The notes below the pieces were generated by a model. That model did no database searches. It saw nothing but the letters and a program-made list of their open reading frames with translations, and was not told where the DNA came from. Both the position numbers and the translations under genes were made by a program. A stretch of 64,000 nucleotides of DNA, taken from the NCBI GenBank assembly GCA_000004985.1, contig GG738892.1; one strand, given 5' to 3'. Every line of letters starts with the position of its first letter. Within the stretch, counting starts at the first letter, position 1. Of the stretch, positions 11,566 to 55,107 are shown piece by piece. The DNA comes from Naegleria gruberi. Its lineage: Eukaryota.

Positions 11566-13110
11566 ATGAAAGCCTCATCATCACGCCTCCTCGTCTTGTG
11601 TTGTGGTCTATTGTTGATTCTCGGCCACTTGATTGAGGCACAAAAGGTAAAGATTGATTCTACCTTTGGTACAAAGAATATGGTGGTGAATGATTTTGTT
11701 CAATATAATTTTCCTATTGTGATTCAACAAACACAATGTGCTTTACAAGTCTCGTTTGATTATAATATTAATGTTGGTATGAATGCCTCTCGATTTGCTT
11801 TCACTGCTGAGACTTTATCACCCAATCCATTCGGAACACTTCATACTCCAGCTACTACTAATTTGAAGATTTATGGATTGTACAAGATTACTTTTGAAGA
11901 TTTTGATCCAAACACTGGAAGTTTAGATATTACAGTTGTTTTGAGTAATCCTAGTGGTTTCTTGAATGTTAATCCATTCTCGATGATATTTTACAAGAAG
12001 GCTGATGCTACATTGATGGGAGAATTTGTTGATGCTGAATCTCATGCATTTTCTGATTCTGTCATGATTGCAACTAATTATAACAACTTGTTGACACAAA
12101 ATTTATTGGTTGCTGGTTTGTATGGTGATTTAGCTCAATCAGTTCAATCTAGAATTGACAAGTCAAATACTGTTCCAGGTCCAACAACTTTCCTCTTTGA
12201 CATTCTTCCAAGTATGAGTCAATCCCTTATTATTGCATTCCCAAATCAAAAGCCAGCCAAGACTCCTCCAACCTTTACTTTGTCTGAATATAATGATTTT
12301 GAACCGACTGCTGTTCCAAAGGGTTATGTTTCTCTCCACTCTTATCAACTCTCCACTTCTGTTGATCCTCCAACATTTTCTGGTTCTACTTGGAGTTTAA
12401 GTTTTGATGCCACTGTTGGATTTTTTTTAAATGACGAGAAGACTCCTGTTGAAATTCAACCATCAAGTCTTACATGTGCCTGTACTGCAAACTCTGATGA
12501 AATTTATCAAAAAGTGGAAAGCAGAGTTAGTACCGATAAGTTGACTTGTAAGATTGAAGATCCAACAACATGTGTCTATCCAATGATCATTGCTAGATTG
12601 GCCCCAAAGGAATCCGTTCCTGTTCAAGTTACTGACATGACCTTTGGTCAAACCTTTAGAGAAAAGGTTGAATATGGTAATAAGAAGATGTTCAAGGTTG
12701 TTGTTCCTTCTAGTGTCAAGTTTACCATTTCTGCCAAGTCACTCTATCAAGGAGAAACTGCAACATTGTTTGTTAATAGTAGAGGCTTCCCTACTGAAAC
12801 TGTCAATATCGCCAGAAAGTCCATTGATAATAAGGAAACTACTGTTACAATTGAAAATAAGGAAGTTGGTCCACTCGATTATTACATTTCCATTGCTCCA
12901 GTTTTTGCTGAAGGTGCTGTTATTATATTGAATGTTGATTATAGCTCATCTCTGGATGATAACGCAATTATCATTTTATCTGTAACCATTCCAATGTTCT
13001 TTTTGGTTCTAATTGTTTGTATGATTTTGGTTGTCGTTCTCTGTAGAAAGAAGAAGCCAGTTATTGAAAGTGATCCTTCAATGTTCCACAAGCTTCAAGA
13101 CAATCAATAA
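11566..13110 (+). CDS. Type I membrane glycoprotein of unknown function: signal peptide, Cys-containing ectodomain, single C-terminal TM helix.
   Basis: Single 514-aa ORF. The N-terminal signal peptide is MKASSSRLLVLCCGLLLILGHLIEAQ. The C-terminal TM is IIILSVTIPMFFLVLIVCMILVVVLC followed by RKKKP. It starts at a true ATG. Confidence 0.6.
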   Translation: MKASSSRLLVLCCGLLLILGHLIEAQKVKIDSTFGTKNMVVNDFVQYNFPIVIQQTQCALQVSFDYNINVGMNASRFAFTAETLSPNPFGTLHTPATTNLKIYGLYKITFEDFDPNTGSLDITVVLSNPSGFLNVNPFSMIFYKKADATLMGEFVDAESHAFSDSVMIATNYNNLLTQNLLVAGLYGDLAQSVQSRIDKSNTVPGPTTFLFDILPSMSQSLIIAFPNQKPAKTPPTFTLSEYNDFEPTAVPKGYVSLHSYQLSTSVDPPTFSGSTWSLSFDATVGFFLNDEKTPVEIQPSSLTCACTANSDEIYQKVESRVSTDKLTCKIEDPTTCVYPMIIARLAPKESVPVQVTDMTFGQTFREKVEYGNKKMFKVVVPSSVKFTISAKSLYQGETATLFVNSRGFPTETVNIARKSIDNKETTVTIENKEVGPLDYYISIAPVFAEGAVIILNVDYSSSLDDNAIIILSVTIPMFFLVLIVCMILVVVLCRKKKPVIESDPSMFHKLQDNQ

Positions 13111-16129: not shown

Positions 16130-16278
16130 ATTAACAATGTCTCCCATTCATCATTCCTTACTGTTTCATCAAAATCCCTTCTTAACAATATCTTTAGATT
16201 TTTCAGAAATGAGACATTGAATGTTGATGATTTACTTCCTCCGATATTTTCAAACGTTTTTTTTGATTTTTTAAAAAA

Positions 16279-18228
16279 AATGAAAAGAAACTTTCCCGCC
16301 AATTCTCTCGTAGTTTTTATATTGTTGGTGGCTCTTGCTTCATCATCATTCCAACAACAAGAAACCTCTTCGGTAACAGTCTATAGTAAGAATAATTATA
16401 TTCTCAATTCGGAGGACTATTTGAAAGGAGCTGCTGTTGCTAGACTTGTCGATTCTGTTCAATTGAATGGCTGGTCTCAACTCAATATTTCAACCAATGC
16501 TAATTTATTTAATGATGAAGAACAAATGTATGCTGCTGGTATGGCTGAAGGATTAGTTTCCTCCTATCAAACCTGGCAACTTCTTCAAAATCAAATTTAT
16601 GATTGGAATTTCACGGAAAGTACTGGAAGTGTGAAGAGAACTCCATCATCAAATTATGTTTATCCAAAGGGAATTATTAATTTCCTTACACAAAATAATG
16701 CTTGGATGAGAAAGGAAGCTATTCAAAGAAAGGATCATTGCAAGTTTTGGTATCATGTCAATTTGATGATGACTCAATTTGATGGTCTTGTGGATGGTTT
16801 TTTGATTGGACAACAACGTGATTCTCGTATTCCTGCAAATAAGTATTTGGATTGGTTTGATTTGTTGGTTTTGCAAGGTATGTTTTTTAGTATTATTGTT
16901 AATGTTTAATAATTATTTCAATGCATTTCGCATGATAATTTTGTTATTGGATTCGGAATATTACATTGGAATATTGATGATTTTAAATTGAAATTACATG
17001 AAAATGGTTGAAATATATGGAATAGCTGCTGGTGATATGTACACACTTGTGGATGCTTTTGGAAGCTCATTGATGAAGTCTTCTCTCAAGACTCGTGCTG
17101 AAGCTTTTGCATCTGGTATTCCTTTGGAAGTTTTCCAATCTAATGCCTTCACTAGAAAGTATAAAGAAGAGCCACCATACACTGAATGTAGTGCTCTCAT
17201 TAAGGTTACACCAGATTGTAAAAACATCTTTGTAGGTCACACAACCTGGAGAAGATATAACATTATTAACAAGTTCTTCAAGACTCTCACAATGCCACTC
17301 AAGTTTGTTGCTGCCAAGACTGTCAGTATGAGTTCTTCTGCCAGTTTCTTCTCCTCTAAGGAAGATTATTTGGCTATGGACTCTGGTTTGGTTGCTTTGG
17401 AAACCTCTCTCAGTACCTACAATACTTCATTGTATAAATTGCTCAAGCCAGAATCATTACTTTCATGGGTTAGAAGTGTTGTTGCCAGTAGATTGGCTTA
17501 TACTTCAAAGGAATGGATTGATACCTTTGCTAAATTCTCCAGTGGTACCTAGTAAGTTTTCTCAATTCATTCACAAAAATATTTAAATGAATAGCAACAA
17601 TCAATGGATGAGTTTGGATATGAAGAAATTCAAGCCAGGTACTTGTCAATTGGAAAAGGATACCTTATGGATTATTGAAGAACTTCCAGGAGGTGCCAAT
17701 CAAAATGCTGACGTTTCATCAATTGTAAATTCCAATCAAGGTTATTGGCCAAGTTACAATATTCCATACTTCCCAGAAATTTACAACATGCTTGGTTATG
17801 CTGAAGCAAAGAAAAAGTTCGGAAATGAAATGGATTATAAATTGTGTCCAAGAGCTAAGATTTTCGCTAGAGAACAATCCAAGATTATCAATGATTGGAA
17901 ATCATTTGGAAGAGTTTTGCAATTCAATGAATGGCAAATTGATGAATTCAGTGAAGGAGATCCAGCTAAATCAATTGCTGCTCGTTACGATTTGAGACCT
18001 ACCAATGGTCAACTCAAACCAGCTGCATTTGGTGGTGCTGATACTAAATTGACCAGTTACAGACACGTCATGAATAGTGCTACTGGTAAACCTGTTACTT
18101 TCGGTATGGCTGGTCCAACTCACCAAGAACAAGCTCCATTCACATGGAATGATAATCGTTGGAATTCAATTCCACATTTGGGTCAACCAGACACTTACGA
18201 TTTTGACTGGGTTCAATTCAACAATTAA
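16279..18228 (+). CDS. Phospholipase B-like (PLBD / laminin-A family) secreted protein. join(16279..16877,17031..17551,17595..18228).
   Basis: Signal peptide MKRNFPANSLVVFILLVALASSS. Introns are GTATGT (16878) to AATAG (17030), and GTAAGT (17552) to AATAG (17594). Splicing restores the conserved PLB-like motif SGTYNNQWMSLD across intron 2. Other family-typical blocks are present (LVSSYQTWQLL, WNSIPHLGQPDTYDFDWVQFNN). Confidence 0.7.
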
Positions 18229-18326: not shown

Positions 18327-19334
18327 TTACAGCACAGTACAATTCCAAGAATTATTTTCAGTTTTCTGTGGTGATGGTTCTTGAATTAGTGTCCAATCTT
18401 TCAATTGTTGGAAATAGGTAAATTGCAATTGAACGAACCAAAATGGAGTAAACACATTCTTCATATCCTTTGAATTAGCCTGTACGAAGATTGATTGCCG
18501 GAATCCAAATGCCTTTTTCACAGCCTCCTTTGGGTTGACCATCTCAGTAACTTGAACATTTGAGTACAAGCCAAGAATAATGCCCAGATGTGGTTGTTTT
18601 AGAACCTCTTTAACTGCCTCAAACCATTTATCCAAATCATCAAGTGTTTCCTTTCGATTCATTGCAAAACAGATAAGAAAATTCAACCATGAAAGCCTTC
18701 CCAATTGCTTTACAACTCCAGTCGAAAGGTATCTTTCCTGTCGAGCAGTATCCCATATTTGATGTTTAAACGCTTCCTCACCTCTAAGAGGAGCAAACGC
18801 CTTGACAATAAAATCAACCATTGAGTGAGAATAATTGTCAAAGTGTCCATTGTTCATTGTCTTTGAAAAGGTTTTCTTTCCAACAAAAGCATCACCTACA
18901 AGCATGTACTTGATGGTGTTGTTGTTGGAATTTATGAGCTTGGGTTTCTCATAAGAAGGACGAAATCTAGATCGATAAAAATCCAATAAATTAAATTGAC
19001 TTTCTAATACGTGCTCAACGTTTTTTGAATCTTTTTGTTCTGATGGATTAATATTACCCAATCTAAATGCCAATTGTAATAAATACATTCGAATGAAATA
19101 CTTTGAATTTCCAATCAACGAAATTTTGTCCGATTCATCTTCAATATTTCCATTGGAAGAAGAAATTGAAATTTTACATCCCAACAAATTTTCATCACAC
19201 CTTAAAATTTCATCCACATAAACCCAACATTTTCCCACCACTTGATAAATTGCTTGGTTAGTTCCCACTAGTGAAGCAAGCACATCAATAGGATGCAAAA
19301 ATTGAATAACTGTGGTCCAAACATCTTGATTCAT
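18327..19334 (-). CDS. F-box-like N-terminus fused to a divergent Ras/Rab-like small GTPase domain. An upstream ATG at 19403 is an alternative start.
   Basis: N-terminus MNQDVWTTVIQFLHPIDVLASLVGTNQAIYQVVGKCW is F-box-like. The C-terminal half has G1 KYMLVGDAFVGKKT and G3 WDTARQERY (canonical DTAGQE with G to R), and NKxD is degenerate. The 23 residues before MNQDVW are AT-rich, leader-like translation. Confidence 0.5.
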   Translation of the reverse strand: MNQDVWTTVIQFLHPIDVLASLVGTNQAIYQVVGKCWVYVDEILRCDENLLGCKISISSSNGNIEDESDKISLIGNSKYFIRMYLLQLAFRLGNINPSEQKDSKNVEHVLESQFNLLDFYRSRFRPSYEKPKLINSNNNTIKYMLVGDAFVGKKTFSKTMNNGHFDNYSHSMVDFIVKAFAPLRGEEAFKHQIWDTARQERYLSTGVVKQLGRLSWLNFLICFAMNRKETLDDLDKWFEAVKEVLKQPHLGIILGLYSNVQVTEMVNPKEAVKKAFGFRQSIFVQANSKDMKNVFTPFWFVQLQFTYFQQLKDWTLIQEPSPQKTENNSWNCTVL

Positions 19335-19898
19335 TTTTTTTTGATTGTAAAAATAAAAATTTACAGTAATAAGCAACAAGATTTTTATTTTGTCATGAAT
19401 CATCTTGTATTAAGATGTTGATGTGATCTGGGAGAAAATAAATTGTGCAATGTGCTCATTGGGACAAATTTTAAAAGTTGTAACTAGTTAAGGAACATTG
19501 AGGGGAATGGATTAAAAACTTGTGAAGCAAGTTTTGACACTTTCTACCAACCAAGTGGGTGTTGTCCTTTAATATTAAGGACATAATTCAACTTGTCCTT
19601 TTTCTATCTAAAAAAATACAGTGGATACAATTTCTTTAGAATCATCATCCTCACCAACCCAATAAAACAAAACAACATTCCAAACTTTGGAAGTTGATCC
19701 TTCCCAAATTCAAAATGACAAAGAGAAATACTTCCCAGAACTATTTGTTGAAGATGAACAAGATGTAATCATACAAATTAGTCAAAAGTCAGATTGAAGA
19801 ATTGTCTATTTTTATGTAGAATTGGACTGCTATAACATTTATATTCCATATTTGACAATTTTCCATTAAAACAATTTTTTGTAAATTCAATCAAAAAA

Positions 19899-20381
19899 AT
19901 GCTTCGTTCCAAAATCACTTCCGTTTGCTCATCACGACAATTTATTAATTCCTTCGGCAAATCCTCATTATTTCCATCATTAAACACAAAATTACATAAT
20001 TTCCATTCCTTACAAAGTAACCGAAAATCAAACTCATCCGATATTGATGCAAAATCCATCATTAAATCTATTAAAGTCCCAGAAATGGGTAATGGTATTA
20101 GATCCGCAACCATTTCCCGATGGAAGAAACATCCAGGTGATGAATGTGATGGTTCTGATGTGTTGGCTGAATTGGAGATGAAGAATTCTGATATGAAATT
20201 ATTGCTCGAGTTGAGACCACCTGTTAAGGGACAAGTGAGGGAACATTTGAAGAATGTTGGAGATGAGGTGATGGTTGGAGAGAAGATTGCAACCATGGAA
20301 ACGTTGGATATTGATGAGGAAAGTAGATTGAGACATGTTGTGGAGGATGCTATCATTGATGTTCATGTTTTACCTAAATAG
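19899..20381 (+). CDS. Small mitochondrial-targeted protein consisting of a single lipoyl-attachment (biotin/lipoyl hybrid-barrel) domain.
   Basis: The N-terminal ~60 aa is S/R/K-rich and lacks acidic residues (MLRSKITSVCSSRQFINSFGKSSLF...), i.e. presequence-like. It is followed by IKVPEMGNGIRSATISRWKKHPGDECDGSDVLAELEMKNSDMKLLLEL..VGDEVMVGEKIA, which matches the lipoyl-domain consensus including the lipoyl-lysine position (ExxK). There is no catalytic or E3-binding domain after it. The stop is at 20379..20381 with no donor site. Confidence 0.5.
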   Translation: MLRSKITSVCSSRQFINSFGKSSLFPSLNTKLHNFHSLQSNRKSNSSDIDAKSIIKSIKVPEMGNGIRSATISRWKKHPGDECDGSDVLAELEMKNSDMKLLLELRPPVKGQVREHLKNVGDEVMVGEKIATMETLDIDEESRLRHVVEDAIIDVHVLPK

Positions 20382-20467: not shown

Positions 20468-21768
20468 TTAAGGAAGTGAAATTGTTGAAATTGGAGTGTT
20501 TGGTTCACTATCGATGGATATTGAAGAATTGGAAAGATTATGGAAATTATCTTGATTGGAGGCAGTTAGGAATGTTCCAAATTGTTGGTGATTACTAGTA
20601 TTGGTAGTGTTTGGTGACATTTCAATTCCTTTTGAGTTTTCCAAAGCTCTATTTGTTTTGTGTTCAAAGTTGACTGCCTTAATGGCATTCTTGACCATCC
20701 TTTTCATTTCACTGATAGGTCCAAAGAGGATACACAAACCAACAATGAAAATCCATGTAGCAATTGCCTTTCCAATTAACGAAACCACTTGAAAGTAAAC
20801 TGAAACATTCGAAACTTCTCCTATAAACGAAATCAATTCCATCAAACACAAGAAAACAGCAATCAAAGCAACTAAACTCACAATGATAACAATTCTAATA
20901 ATTGCCTTCTTACTAGTTTCCTTCAAATAATGTCCAGAATTTTCACTACTTTGTTTCAAATGTCTGATTAGCTGAACGGTTGTCCAAATTACATAACCCA
21001 ATGAAGAAAGAACACATAGAATGAAGATAGTTGTTGTCAATGAATAGAAAAATATAAGAGCTGGTTTGATGGTTGTGTCATTGGTTGCTTGTTGAACTTT
21101 TGTTATTTGGTCAACTAGCACAGTAATGATATAACCTATAATCACCACTGAAAGAATGATAGGAATGGTAATTATCGATCCAAGAAGAATCTTGAATACC
21201 TTTTCTGAAATGTATTTCAACTTCCTGCTCGTTTGCAAACTATTTCACATTTAAAACAATTCTAATCTTAAACTAAAACTTACAATATATAACAAACAAA
21301 CAAGAACTGCACCACCAACCACCAATCATTCACAGCCCATCCACAATAAATCAATGCATTAATCACTCTCACATGGAGTGGTTTCTCAGAACTGACAAAA
21401 GTCGCCACAGGAAAAGCCAACATGTTTAAGATTCGTAAAGCAAATAAAATGATCAAGATTACAACACTAGGTAACATGATAGAGAAGAGGATGATCTTGT
21501 TTTTGGAGAAGGGCCTTTTGGGTTTGATAGGAGTTGAAGAAGGATTGTTTTCGTCTGGTTTCGTTTTTTGGCTTGCTTTTGATTTGTGTTTAAAGCAGAT
21601 TAGGAGGGTAAGAATGAATGGAAGGAGAATAATGAAGGATAGCATTTGAATGAAGGTTACCGAAACCTCGCCAATGATTTGCGCAGTGGACACTGTTTCG
21701 TTTAAAGAAGAAGAATTAGATGAAACAGCTTGTATTATGAACAAATCAACTAATGACGACATTTTCAA
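20468..21768 (-). CDS. Multi-pass membrane protein of unknown function. complement(join(20468..21239,21284..21768)).
   Basis: Two ORFs are joined by a 44-bp GTAAGT..AAATAG intron (21240..21283) in compatible phase. There are at least 6 hydrophobic helices (FIILLPFILTLLICF, IILFSIMLPSVVILIILFAL, IITIPIILSVVIIGYIITVLV, IFILCVLSSLGYVIW, IIVSLVALIAVFLCLMELI, IATWIFIVGLCILF). The C-terminal tail is S/N/T-rich. Confidence 0.55.
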
Positions 21769-51800: not shown

Positions 51801-52307
51801 ATAAACATGGAGAACCATTCGAAACATCATTCAAATTACAACTTGAAATTTGTGCGAAATATTTAGAATTGGACATTTGCATCCAATTATTAGGAGCATC
51901 AGATTGTGCAGGACATGAAGTATCAAGAGCAGCTCTTCCCTTCATGGAATTCCATAAAAATCCTTCGACACCTGGAACATATTGTCTTTGGAAGTTTCGT
52001 TCAGTAATTGATGGACAACGACATTGATTAACTCTTAATCTTGCTTGTTCGATGGCATAATTAGTAGCAGAATAGGCCAAACCAATGTTAATGTTGGATT
52101 CTAGAAGAGATCCTTTCAAAAGACGCATGTAACCATTGCCTGATTAGTGACAGATGCAAATTAATATAAAAATATTAAACATGACATGTTAATAAAAATT
52201 AAAGTCTACCAAAACCTACATGAGAGTGAAATAATTTCACGTTGATGAGATGAACACACCAATGTCACCACAAGAATGACAAATGTCAAGCAATGTAATA
52301 ATTTCAT
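48887..52307 (-). CDS. Large Cys-rich (EGF-like repeat) and Ser/Thr/Ala-rich cell-surface protein with an N-terminal signal peptide, an internally duplicated Cys-rich domain and a GPI-anchor-like C-terminus. complement(join(48887..50350?,50347?..52139,52241..52307)), with a 1-nt frame break near 50350.
   Basis: Exon 1 is MKLLHCLTFVILVVTLVCSSHQ (signal peptide). A GTGAAA..AATCAG intron (52140..52240, phase 1) joins it to ...NGYMRLLKGSLLES. Multiple EGF-like CxxxxGxCxCxxGYxGxxC units lie in 50600..51100. The downstream ORF (48887..50350) is in the -1 frame but repeats the upstream domain (CKGDDCDKIGYPCQQDSDCGGNSLTC vs CEGNLCKQLLNAQTCSSDADCGDNIKC). Then come S/T/A/V-rich repeats and a C-terminal GSFMINCSLLIISILAAFLMML. 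Confidence 0.6.
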
Positions 52308-52538
52308 TTTTTTTGTGAATGTTTAAACTCTTCAGCAACTTGGTTACAAGAAACGTGAAGGGCATCAACAGTTAAAAATCACCGAAAACCTATTTTCATG
52401 AAGATGGTGGAAACCATTTTTGGTCTTTTAAGTTTCTTCTTGTTTTTAACTTGCCTTTTTAAAGTTTACAATAAAGCGACAACGGCTAAACTAAACTAAA
52501 GTGGAAAGCATGGATGAGATTTTGGTCTCTGTGTTTAA

Positions 52539-54086
52539 ATGAAAGGTGCATACCACAGTGTGTTGTTGAAGCATTCAGGTTCATCCTTCCACATGATTGT
52601 TGACACTGAAAAAATGATGTTGACACTTCCTGCTAAATATCCAATAATTAGTTTTTGTGTTTGTTTGGTGATTTTGTTGGCGAGTTGTGGATTGAGTGTT
52701 TGGAAATTAAAAATTGATTCGGATCCTTTTAAACTTTTAACACATTCACATTCGAATGCCAAGTTGAAACGAGACGAAATGAATTTATTGTTTCCTAAAT
52801 ATAATATATGAGAGCAGTGAGCATATTTAAGGGATCCTCTAGANNNNNNNNNNNNNNNNNNNNNNNNNNNNNNNNNNNNNNNNNNNNNNNNNNNNNNNNN
52901 NNNNNNNNNNNNNNNNNNNNNNNNNNNNNNNNNNNNNNNNNNNNNNNNNNNNNNNNNNNNNNNNNNNNNNNNNNNNNNNNNNNNNNNNNNNNNNNNNNNN
53001 NNNNNNNNNNNNNNNNNNNNNNNNNNNNNNNNNNNNNNNNNNNNNNNNNNNNNNNNNNNNNNNNNNNNNNNNNNNNNNNNNNNNNNNNNNNNNNNNNNNN
53101 NNNNNNNNNNNNNNNNNNNNNNNNNNNNNNNNNNNNNNNNNNNNNNNNNNNNNNNNNNNNNNNNNNNNNNNNNNNNNNNNNNNNNNNNNNNNNNNNNNNN
53201 NNNNNNNNNNNNNNNNNNNNNNNNNNNNNNNNNNNNNNNNNNNNNNNNNNNNNNNNNNNNNNNNNNNNNNNNNNNNNNNNNNNNNNNNNNNNNNNNNNNN
53301 NNNNNNNNNNNNNNNNNNNNNNNNNNNNNNNNNNNNNNNNNNNNNNNNNNNNNNNNNNNNNNNNNNNNNNNNNNNNNNNNNNNNNNNNNNNNNNNNNNNN
53401 NNNNNNNNNNNNNNNNNNNNNNNNNNNNNNNNNNNNNNNNNNNNNNNNNNNNNNNNNNNNNNNNNNNNNNNNNNNNNNNNNNNNNNNNNNNNNNNNNNNN
53501 NNNNNNNNNNNNNNNNNNNNNNNNNNNNNNNNNNNNNNNNNNNNNNNNNNNNNNNNNNNNNNNNNNNNNNNNNNNNNNNNNNNNNNNNNNNNNNNNNNNN
53601 NNNNNNNNNNNNNNNNNNNNNNNNNNNNNNNNNNNNNNNNNNNNNNNNNNNNNNNNNNNNNNNNNNNNNNNNNNNNNNNNNNNNNNNNNNNNNNNNNNNN
53701 NNNNNNNNNNNNNNNNNNNNNNNNNNNNNNNNNNNNNNNNNNNNNNNNNNNNNNNNNNNNNNNNNNNNNNNNNNNNNNNNNNNNNNNNNNNNNNNNNNNN
53801 NNNNNNNNNNNNNNNNNNNNNNNNNNNNNNNNNNNNNNNNNNNNNNNNNNNNNNNNNNNNNNNNNNNNNNNNNNACCTCTTGACTATTCCTTTATTGATT
53901 TGTTCCTTGTCAACTGTGGTCAGCATTCTGCCTCTTGCATTTCATGATATCAAGATTGTGAAAAAGTACTTTTTCGATATTATTATTTTAGGACAAGGTA
54001 TTTTATTGTTTAACGTATTGGTAATATTCCCTGCAATATTATCATTAATTGAAAAGTTGAGATCTAGGAAAATTCCAGCTCTTTAA
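52539..54086 (+). CDS. Patched/Dispatched/RND-superfamily-like multi-pass transporter, copy 1. The N-terminal part and the C-terminal part are separated by a 1032-N gap at 52843..53874.
   Basis: The N-terminus has TM1 (ISFCVCLVILLASCGLSVW) followed by KLKIDSDPFKLLTHSHSNAKLKRDEMNLLFPKY, resembling the post-TM1 IETDPxxLW loop-start of RND/SSD proteins. After the gap, 53877..54086 encodes LLTIPLLICSLSTVVSILPLAFHDIKIVKKYFFDIIILGQGILLFNVLVIFPAILSLIEKLRSRK, identical to the end of copy 2. Confidence 0.45.
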
Positions 54087-55107
54087 TTCTACCAAACTCT
54101 TTCCTATTTTACCCACTAAAATCTAAACCTACCAATAAAACAAATTTGAATCACCAAAGCCATGTCGAGTATTGCATGATAAAATAATTTTCCCTTTTCC
54201 TTAACTTTCACGAAATAATTGCTACGGTACATCAACAATAATACTGTTAACAATTTATACTTCAAGATGATTGGTTAGTGTCAGCAATCGCAAGTCACAT
54301 ATATTTGGTAAAACGTTGTTTTAGGTTTTCATTTGTGTACAATAAATTATTACAAAAATGTGAACAGAGCTTATTGTTAACTACGATTTGTCACTAATCC
54401 CTAGACAAATTCTGTTTCAGTAATTTGTGAATTAAATATCGTTAGTATTGCTTGTAAAGAATAGACGGTGGGCAGTACCATGTATTCGTTGTTCCAACTA
54501 GAGTCGAGCCAATTTTATTAATATTTTAATATTATTTATTCTTCTGATGATATTTCGTCGCCACTTTATTCATCACTTCCACTTTGTGGATTCTGATGCA
54601 TCATCTTCCTCATATTCTGATCCGCTGGTAGTATCGTCTTGGTAAATTCTTGGAAAGCTTTTGGAGTTTATGGTTTGATGGTTGGTATTTCATCATCAAC
54701 AGGATTTCCTCTTTTTGTTGCCAATTTCTTGGTTTCTTTGTTGTTGGAGATTTAGATGTAAGAAGAAGATTCCAGTCAAAGAAACTTCCTGATGATGGGT
54801 TGTTGTATTAATTTTCTAACCAACTGCCATGTTGTTCAGTTGCTTCCAAATACCAGCTTGTGATTGGACATTGTGGCCAGTAGACAAAACCTAGTAAAGA
54901 AGTTCCATAAACTTCATTCTCCAAACAAGTGATTTTGTTGCAATTTGCCAAAGATGCAGTGATAAGAAGAAACTGGTTAGCGAAGGATTATTATTTAAGG
55001 TGATGTGTTTCAGAGAAACCTAATCAATTAAATTTATTCTCGTAGCGCCTCTAATAATGAAATTGAATATAACAGAAATTGGTGACAATTCTACACAACA
55101 AGATGAA

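Follow-up and report, generated by a model that had tools for sequence, protein, structure and literature searches.

A stand-alone lipoyl-domain-like protein with an elongated lysine hairpin in Naegleria gruberi

Can a lipoyl domain that stands alone, and whose lysine is displaced, still be a lipoyl carrier? The question is raised by a gene at positions 19,899 to 20,381 (+ strand) of a 64,000-nucleotide stretch of the Naegleria gruberi genome (assembly GCA_000004985.1, contig GG738892.1), hereafter the window. Lipoyl domains are highly stereotyped modules in which the modified lysine is considered to have a fixed place. A first-pass annotation, made from the sequence, had described the product as a stand-alone mitochondrial protein with one lipoyl domain and a conserved lipoyl-lysine context (LAELEMKNSDM). 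It took the protein for a lipoyl carrier or regulatory subunit of a 2-oxoacid dehydrogenase complex, or for a truncated E2 or E3-binding protein (E3BP), and suggested as checks a Biotin_lipoyl profile search and a look for separate E2 genes elsewhere in the genome. The domain and its isolation are borne out by the analysis presented here. The hairpin that carries the lysines is four residues longer than in the nearest domains, which makes a role as carrier doubtful.

Gene model, domain architecture and nearest paralogue

The features of the gene, together with the end of the gene that converges on it, are as follows.

19899..20381, + strand: complete single-exon coding sequence, with ATG at 19899, TAG at 20379-20381 and 160 codons
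19899..20039, + strand: presequence-like N-terminus, residues 1-47 (MLRSKITSVCSSRQF...NRKSNSS), from its composition and low AlphaFold confidence
20067..20297, + strand: lipoyl-type (barrel-sandwich hybrid) domain, residues 57-133, from Pfam, NCBIfam, PDB, AlphaFold and Foldseek
20166..20213, + strand: elongated Lys hairpin, residues 90-105 (AELEMKNSDMKLLLEL), from the four-residue insertion, the Gly spacing and the model
20181-20183, + strand: codon of K95, within the Lys hairpin
20196-20198, + strand: codon of K100, within the Lys hairpin
20307..20378, + strand: C-terminal tail, residues 137-160 (DIDEESRLRHVVEDAIIDVHVLPK), outside the Pfam match and without detectable homology
20468..21238, - strand: final exon of the downstream gene, which converges on this one and encodes a multi-pass membrane protein (N. 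gruberi 'predicted protein' P0170), from the list of open reading frames (ORFs) and a 100% match to the N. gruberi protein

The product is identical over its whole length (100% identity, 100% length) to the N. gruberi protein XP_002673215.1 (EFC40471.1, D2VRY3, NAEGRDRAFT_51783), which is deposited, uncharacterised and annotated only as "predicted protein"; the NCBI gene model of NAEGRDRAFT_51783 is the same ORF, 19899-20381. The nearest in-frame stop lies 21 codons 5′ of the ATG, with no other ATG between them. Scored with a codon table built from the Pfam-supported genes of the window, the gene gives 0.30 bits per codon in its own frame and no more than 0.04 in the other five; the neighbouring genes give 0.16-0.54, and the part that encodes the domain is gene-like at 0.45 bits per codon. 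An antisense ORF of 192 codons (19778-20356) was rejected as a shadow ORF, because coding-type codon usage is confined to the frame of 19899-20381. The stop of the gene is separated from that of the convergent gene by 86 bp, and a missed downstream exon is therefore very unlikely.

The N-terminal 47 residues start with MLRS, have no Asp or Glu before D48, carry a net charge of +7 and include 15 Ser/Thr; in the AlphaFold model they are of low confidence and lack regular structure. This composition is of the mitochondrial presequence type, in agreement with the presequence-like N-terminus that the earlier annotation had noted, and suggests targeting to the mitochondrion.

The confidently folded core comprises residues 53-136. 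Pfam family PF00364 (Biotin_lipoyl) matches residues 57-133 over positions 2-73 of its 73-position profile, with an E-value of 9.8e-12 and 45 bits (cut-off 22.1). At E ≤ 10 there was no match to 2-oxoacid_dh (PF00198), E3_binding (PF02817), GCV_H (PF01597) or any other Pfam family. The best NCBIfam matches are to the N-termini of sucB/E2o (E 1e-11 to 2.5e-10), the biotin-enzyme profiles of that collection reach only 0.017-0.11, and there is no NCBIfam GcvH match for the protein. In the PDB, the best sequence match is the lipoyl domain of the Bacillus stearothermophilus pyruvate dehydrogenase (1lab, E 4.5e-9). The AlphaFold model, built with a 44-sequence alignment, has block means of 82-98 over residues 51-140, where the strands succeed one another as expected, and is unconfident in both tails. 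With this predicted structure as query, Foldseek places the E2o and E2p lipoyl domains of the PDB first and biotinyl domains after them, the best matches having target-normalised TM-scores of 0.65-0.81 and root-mean-square deviations of about 2 Å. By profile and predicted fold, the domain is thus a member of the Biotin_lipoyl (single-hybrid-motif) superfamily. It is followed by 24 residues only; this tail has block means of 55-62 in the model and is identical in an environmental strain copy of the gene (contig L001, described below).

The N. gruberi organelle proteome table (PMC8134430) includes a complete E2o (XP_002682037.1, lipoyl site IDTDKVSVEI), an E2p (XP_002680871.1), a second E2p/E3BP-like protein (XP_002680673.1), an E2b (XP_002681089.1), the glycine cleavage H-protein GcvH (XP_002675653.1) and an LplA-like ligase (XP_002672495.1). 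E2o, E2p, the E2p/E3BP-like protein, E2b and GcvH each have a canonical lipoyl site of their own. Since complete E2s are present, the small protein does not supply a lipoyl domain that is missing from one of them. Its nearest N. gruberi paralogue is the lipoyl domain of E2o, with 29 of 78 residues identical (37%) and a local alignment score of 129; the domains of E2p, the E2p-like protein and E2b score 53-66, and the alignment with GcvH is weak (score 43, z 4.1). When N. gruberi E2o, E2p and E2b were searched by tblastn against both strands of the 64 kb, the only segment found was the lipoyl segment at 20070-20303 (37% over 78 aa with E2o), with no catalytic domain. The view of the product as a single-domain protein without E2 catalytic, E3-binding or H-protein parts is therefore upheld.

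Among known proteins, the N-terminal lipoyl domain of E2o (SucB, ODO2; XP_002682037.1 and PDB entries 1ghj, 1pmr and 9a4v_B) has the same fold and family profile, and is the best match in NCBIfam, among the N. gruberi paralogues and in Foldseek. An 'IKVPxMG' start and an 'E(L/I)RxP' motif after the lysine are common to the two. Unlike E2o, XP_002673215.1 has no linker and catalytic core and ends in its unique 24-residue tail. Like the H-protein and GcvH-like carriers it is small, stands alone, is presumably mitochondrial, has a single-hybrid-motif fold and might in principle carry lipoate, but the GCV_H profile does not match it and N. gruberi already has a normal GcvH. With the E3BP (protein X, Pdx1) it shares the character of a non-catalytic E2 relative with a lipoyl domain; the peripheral-subunit-binding and core-forming domains of E3BP are not found in it, however, and N. 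gruberi has the separate XP_002680673.1.

The lysine hairpin and competence for lipoylation

Every alignment required a four-residue insertion just before the aligned lysine (ELEMKNSDMKLLLEL against EVQ--N--DKAVVEI), whether it was made by phmmer to PDB chains, by MAFFT with four N. gruberi E2 domains and the library hits, or pairwise. phmmer assigns the four inserted residues to M94, K95, S97 and D98, whose removal would leave E-N-M-K, and MAFFT assigns them to a single block ahead of K100. The counterpart of the lipoyl-lysine is K100 (D-M-K-L), in a column that holds Lys in 236 of the 289 aligned domains, and not K95 (E-M-K-N), which falls one position too early when counted from the preceding strand. 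The hairpin lacks the canonical E-(T/S)-D-K-(A/V) turn: in place of the T-D-K turn of E2o there is a loop four residues longer, M-K-N-S-D-M-K. The rest of the domain is well kept, including the length of the β1-β2 loop and the conserved W75, G80 and G111. The lysine context that the first-pass annotation had called conserved, and had centred on K95, is thus not conserved.

The lengthening can be expressed as the spacing between the flanking conserved glycines, G80 and G111, which is 31 residues in XP_002673215.1. The same distance was measured in all lipoyl domains of the best 149 of 696 library hits, which amounted to 280 domains: it is 27 residues in 278 of these, 26 in one, and 31 only in the near-identical strain copy. 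Apart from that copy, the lengthening of the hairpin is unique among the nearest 280 domains.

In the AlphaFold model the hairpin consists of strands 90-96 and 99-105 joined by a turn at S97-D98, with a block mean predicted local distance difference test score (pLDDT) of about 90. It is two residues longer per strand, and both K95 and K100 are set back on the strands. If N40-D41-K42-A43 of the Bacillus domain is taken as a guide, the position at the tip would be held by D98. According to the mutagenesis summarised in PMC6270654 (section 4.2), lipoylation takes place only on a lysine exactly at the hairpin tip, the D41K/K42A variant being unmodified and extra flanking lysines being ignored. A functional lipoyl domain is marked structurally by a hairpin of fixed length with the lysine precisely at the tip of its β4-β5 type-I turn, usually in a D-K-A/V context, and this hallmark is absent here. 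Because the lysine has to be exactly at the tip for lipoylating enzymes to modify it (PMC6270654) and the model puts D98 there, the domain is most likely not lipoylated, or only poorly, and most likely does not work as a standard swinging arm. XP_002673215.1 should best be described as lipoyl-domain-like and not as a lipoyl carrier. Of the two roles first proposed for it, that of a carrier is made doubtful by the uniquely lengthened hairpin, and the weight moves to a non-modified protein with a regulatory, binding or minor role.

Taxonomic spread, expression and surroundings

The gene appears to be confined to the N. gruberi group, as judged from sequence searches that together take in near as well as remote relatives. 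Among 5.8 billion proteins, a word-index search returned only the protein itself. An exhaustive phmmer search, run against 1.84 billion representatives, yielded 696 matches with E ≤ 0.001, with only the protein itself below 1e-30; the runner-up, at 9e-16, owes its score to several repeated domains. The best 149 other hits are ordinary lipoyl domains, 27-45% identical, and none of those listed extends past the lipoyl domain. A scan of the JGI metagenomes gave no match to the lipoyl-like protein, and the literature yielded nothing specific on XP_002673215.1 or on stand-alone lipoyl domains in Naegleria or in mitochondria. One other candidate, a eukaryote-looking metagenomic protein (P0066) in which a canonical lipoyl domain of the E2o type stands between a leader and a low-complexity tail, was rejected as an analogue; its contig is only 1182 bp long and it is probably a cut or mis-called E2o.

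The sole relative (P0151) comes from the ENA/Logan metagenome ERR1078381, on a contig that runs collinear to the window, the DNA being about 98% identical. Two independently assembled environmental contigs, L001 and L002, were obtained with P0151, whereas the exact sequence P0001 gave none; both carry this 160-codon ORF and end it at the same stop. Between L001 and the reference there are seven nucleotide differences in the gene, all in codons 1-49 (three synonymous codon changes and three replacements, S4F, H33I and I49L), and none in the 318 nt of codons 56-160, while neighbouring coding sequence diverges by 0.4-1.1%. The first 55 codons, with the leader, diverge by 4.2%, an excess that is significant (Fisher's test, p 0.0005). 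The upstream intergenic region (19404-19898, against 3399-3543 of L001) differs by about 330 bp of indels and 5% mismatches, and the extra sequence has no second copy elsewhere in the window. The upstream region and the leader are thus a local hot spot of divergence and are fast-evolving. At 98% DNA identity the environmental contigs are too close for the ratio of non-synonymous to synonymous substitution rates (dN/dS) to be used on the domain.

A more distant relative is represented by the ENA sample ERZ27315067, in which the phospholipase B of the window has a counterpart at 77% and the membrane protein one at about 50-65% protein identity. The genes beside phospholipase B and beside the membrane-protein gene differ from those of the window, and no lipoyl-like sequence was found on these short contigs, including the 1.1 kb that adjoin the membrane-protein gene. 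This is a break in microsynteny, and the gene may still exist elsewhere in that genome.

Translation of the gene is shown directly: XP_002673215.1 was detected in the label-free whole-cell proteome of N. gruberi in PMC9035749 (supplementary file 2, 'NG cu BCS raw'), with two unique peptides, 15.6% coverage, a Q-value of 0.0008 and five tandem mass spectra, in four of six samples. Its log2 label-free quantification (LFQ) values were 23.7, 24.1 and 24.3 in the three copper-starved (BCS) replicates, and 23.3 in the one of three copper-replete replicates that contained it. The difference between copper-starved and copper-replete cells was non-significant in the authors' test (PMC9035749). Copper is known to bind lipoylated proteins, but the pattern across replicates may simply reflect low abundance.

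Other features of the window are given below.

11566-13110, + strand: ORF of 514 aa with a sub-threshold match to the FTR family (formylmethanofuran-tetrahydromethanopterin formyltransferase; E 1.5e-4; 22 bits, cut-off 27)
16217-18228, + strand: phospholipase-B-like gene, split into three exons, each the size of an ORF, which jointly span the Pfam Phospholip_B profile
18327-19403, - strand: Ras/Roc-type small GTPase domain (residues 165-321) after an N-terminal extension of about 160 residues without family match
62545-63139 and 63700-64000, strand not given: a pair of long telomere-like (TTTGGG)n arrays, with a run of N (63140-63189) and about 500 bp of sequence between them

The exon structure of the phospholipase B gene is the same in environmental relatives at 77% and 51% identity. 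In the related species of ERZ27315067, the gene beside phospholipase B encodes another protein, whose only match is faint and RCC1-like. The FTR match of the 514-aa ORF would, if real, be surprising in a eukaryote; it is probably due to chance.

The window is AT-rich, with about 33-37% GC in its gene-bearing parts. Because it ends in (TTTGGG)n arrays, it appears to be a chromosome-end region of the nuclear genome of N. gruberi, a free-living amoeboflagellate. The sequence between the arrays partly repeats the stretch before the first of them (about 62330-62520 against 63240-63420); the second array could stem from the joining of two telomere-bearing contigs during scaffolding, or it may be a genuine interstitial repeat. 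At 52001-54000 and 58001-62000 there are extremely AT-rich subtelomeric blocks (GC 13-20%, against a background of about 33%), and the long ORFs that overlap on opposite strands at 52535-53947 may be an artefact of composition. A local direct duplication links 53877-55253 with 55978-56844 in three collinear pieces of 217-344 bp that are 93-100% identical. A segmental duplication suggested by two pairs of ORFs of equal length (661 aa and 429 aa) was rejected, the members being unrelated at 6% identity.

Possible roles of the protein

The explanation that we favour, with moderate confidence, is that XP_002673215.1 is a lineage-restricted, E2o-derived, stand-alone pseudo-lipoyl domain which, if active, acts by binding lipoyl-domain-recognising proteins or a partner of its tail. 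The nuclear gene encodes a small protein made up of a mitochondrial-type leader, a lipoyl-fold domain that descends from the E2o type and a short unique tail. Following its presumed import into the mitochondrion, the protein would act as a free 'pseudo-lipoyl' domain, which may occupy or modulate the sites on E1o, E3 or the lipoyl-transfer enzymes by which lipoyl domains are recognised. The protein may alternatively bind a partner through the unique tail, or have a marginal role only. It is more probable that a folded domain has been under some selection than that the sequence has simply decayed, because the ORF, the full-length profile match and the confident fold persist at 37% identity (about 63% divergence) to the nearest paralogue.

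A more specific form of this explanation, which we regard as unlikely, is that the protein has evolved as a soluble mitochondrial 'decoy', a paralogue of the E2o domain made non-lipoylatable by its lengthened hairpin with displaced lysine. Through competition for the sites that bind lipoyl domains, it would modulate the 2-oxoglutarate dehydrogenase complex or the lipoyl-transfer relay. To our knowledge, no lipoate-system counterpart of the plant BADC regulators has been described. BADC proteins enter their complex via BCCP-like contacts. They are biotin-less BCCP paralogues, which according to the abstract of 10.1101/634550 inhibit the heteromeric acetyl-CoA carboxylase. The likeness to XP_002673215.1 is one of concept only, that of a carrier-domain paralogue without a competent attachment site that may compete with the real carrier. 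The cofactor system and the group of organisms are different and homology is limited to the shared superfold, so that the analogy serves as a hypothesis.

Several points weigh against the favoured explanation. Free lipoyl domains bind E1 and E3 weakly, and a decoy would need a high local concentration or a partner bound by its tail. The abundance of the protein is low, with a log2 LFQ of about 24 compared with about 29-33 for the enzymes of the tricarboxylic acid cycle, although the latter values are from the organelle fractions of another study and the scales are not directly comparable. XP_002673215.1 is not among the listed rows of the N. gruberi mitochondrial proteome table, an absence that is uninformative on its location. 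The lack of changes in the 318 nt of the domain part and tail, where about two were expected, is non-significant and too shallow a signal to indicate purifying selection. The alignment behind the AlphaFold model contains no other sequence with the insertion, so that the geometry of the loop is a prediction, and the real loop could present K100 (after D-M) or K95 adequately to a ligase.

Were the loop to do so, the protein could be a working free lipoyl carrier, lipoylated on K100 (or K95) and available to E1o/E3 or to lipoyl transfer as an additional substrate or as a relay in the manner of GcvH, or else working as a redox buffer. Such a role would agree with the lysine that remains in the lipoyl-lysine column, with the good preservation of the rest of the domain, with the presence of an LplA-like ligase and GcvH in the mitochondria of N. 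gruberi, and with the fact that the protein is made. It is nevertheless unlikely, though a tentative case can be made for it: the hairpin is four residues longer than in 279 of 280 domains, the exception being its own strain copy, the modelled tip is Asp98 and not Lys, and the canonical lipoyl proteins are all present already. In addition, the domain that has been studied best is no longer lipoylated once its lysine has been moved by one position (PMC6270654). The protein could instead be an evolutionary leftover, a lineage-specific partial duplicate of the E2o type that is transcribed and translated at a low level and has no selected function. No orthologue was found in the word-index, phmmer and JGI metagenome searches; the neighbouring genes differ in ERZ27315067, where the 1.1 kb next to the membrane-protein gene are free of any lipoyl-like ORF; abundance is low and detection patchy (PMC9035749); the key functional loop is disrupted; and the 5′ part and upstream region evolve fast, with the indel of about 330 bp between strains. 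We consider this unlikely as well, given an intact ORF of 160 codons in a 33% GC genome, with a significant full-length profile match and a confident fold at 37% identity, since unconstrained decay to such a distance would be expected to bring stops or frameshifts. The gene-like codon usage of the domain part (0.45 bits per codon) also argues for a maintained gene.

Two further readings are very improbable. The ORF could be exon 1 of an E2 or E3-binding protein that was mis-annotated and has its catalytic or core-binding part further downstream, for which only a general N-terminal similarity to E2o precursors speaks. This reading, with which the truncated E2/E3BP of the first-pass annotation falls, is close to refuted and effectively excluded by the convergent gene end 86 bp past the stop, the lack of a detectable E2 catalytic domain on either strand of the 64 kb, the identical public gene model, the same ORF and stop in L001 and L002, and the complete E2 genes (E2o, E2p, E2p/E3BP-like and E2b) elsewhere in N. 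gruberi. In our judgement it is equally improbable that the domain is of the biotinyl (BCCP-like) carrier type, with biotin attached at the M-K of 'DMKL'. The Met before K100 recalls the A-M-K-M motif of biotinyl domains, the Pfam family takes in both kinds of domain, and biotinyl domains are among the weaker fold matches. Against this, the E2o/E2p profiles match at 1e-11 to 1e-8 and those of biotin enzymes at 0.017-0.11, the same problem of hairpin length arises, as M-K-L sits in the lengthened hairpin, and the locus encodes no carboxylase domain as a partner.

The wider impact of the finding is limited by the apparent confinement of the gene to the N. gruberi group and by the low abundance of the protein. 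For annotation, it illustrates that a Biotin_lipoyl profile match with a lysine nearby does not amount to a lipoylatable site. The module itself is well known, and what is met here is an expressed, stand-alone variant with a uniquely lengthened lysine hairpin, which constitutes a natural experiment on the tolerance of the lipoylating enzymes and of the E1 and E3 components. If it does bind a partner, XP_002673215.1 would be an example of mitochondrial regulation by a cofactor-less carrier mimic.

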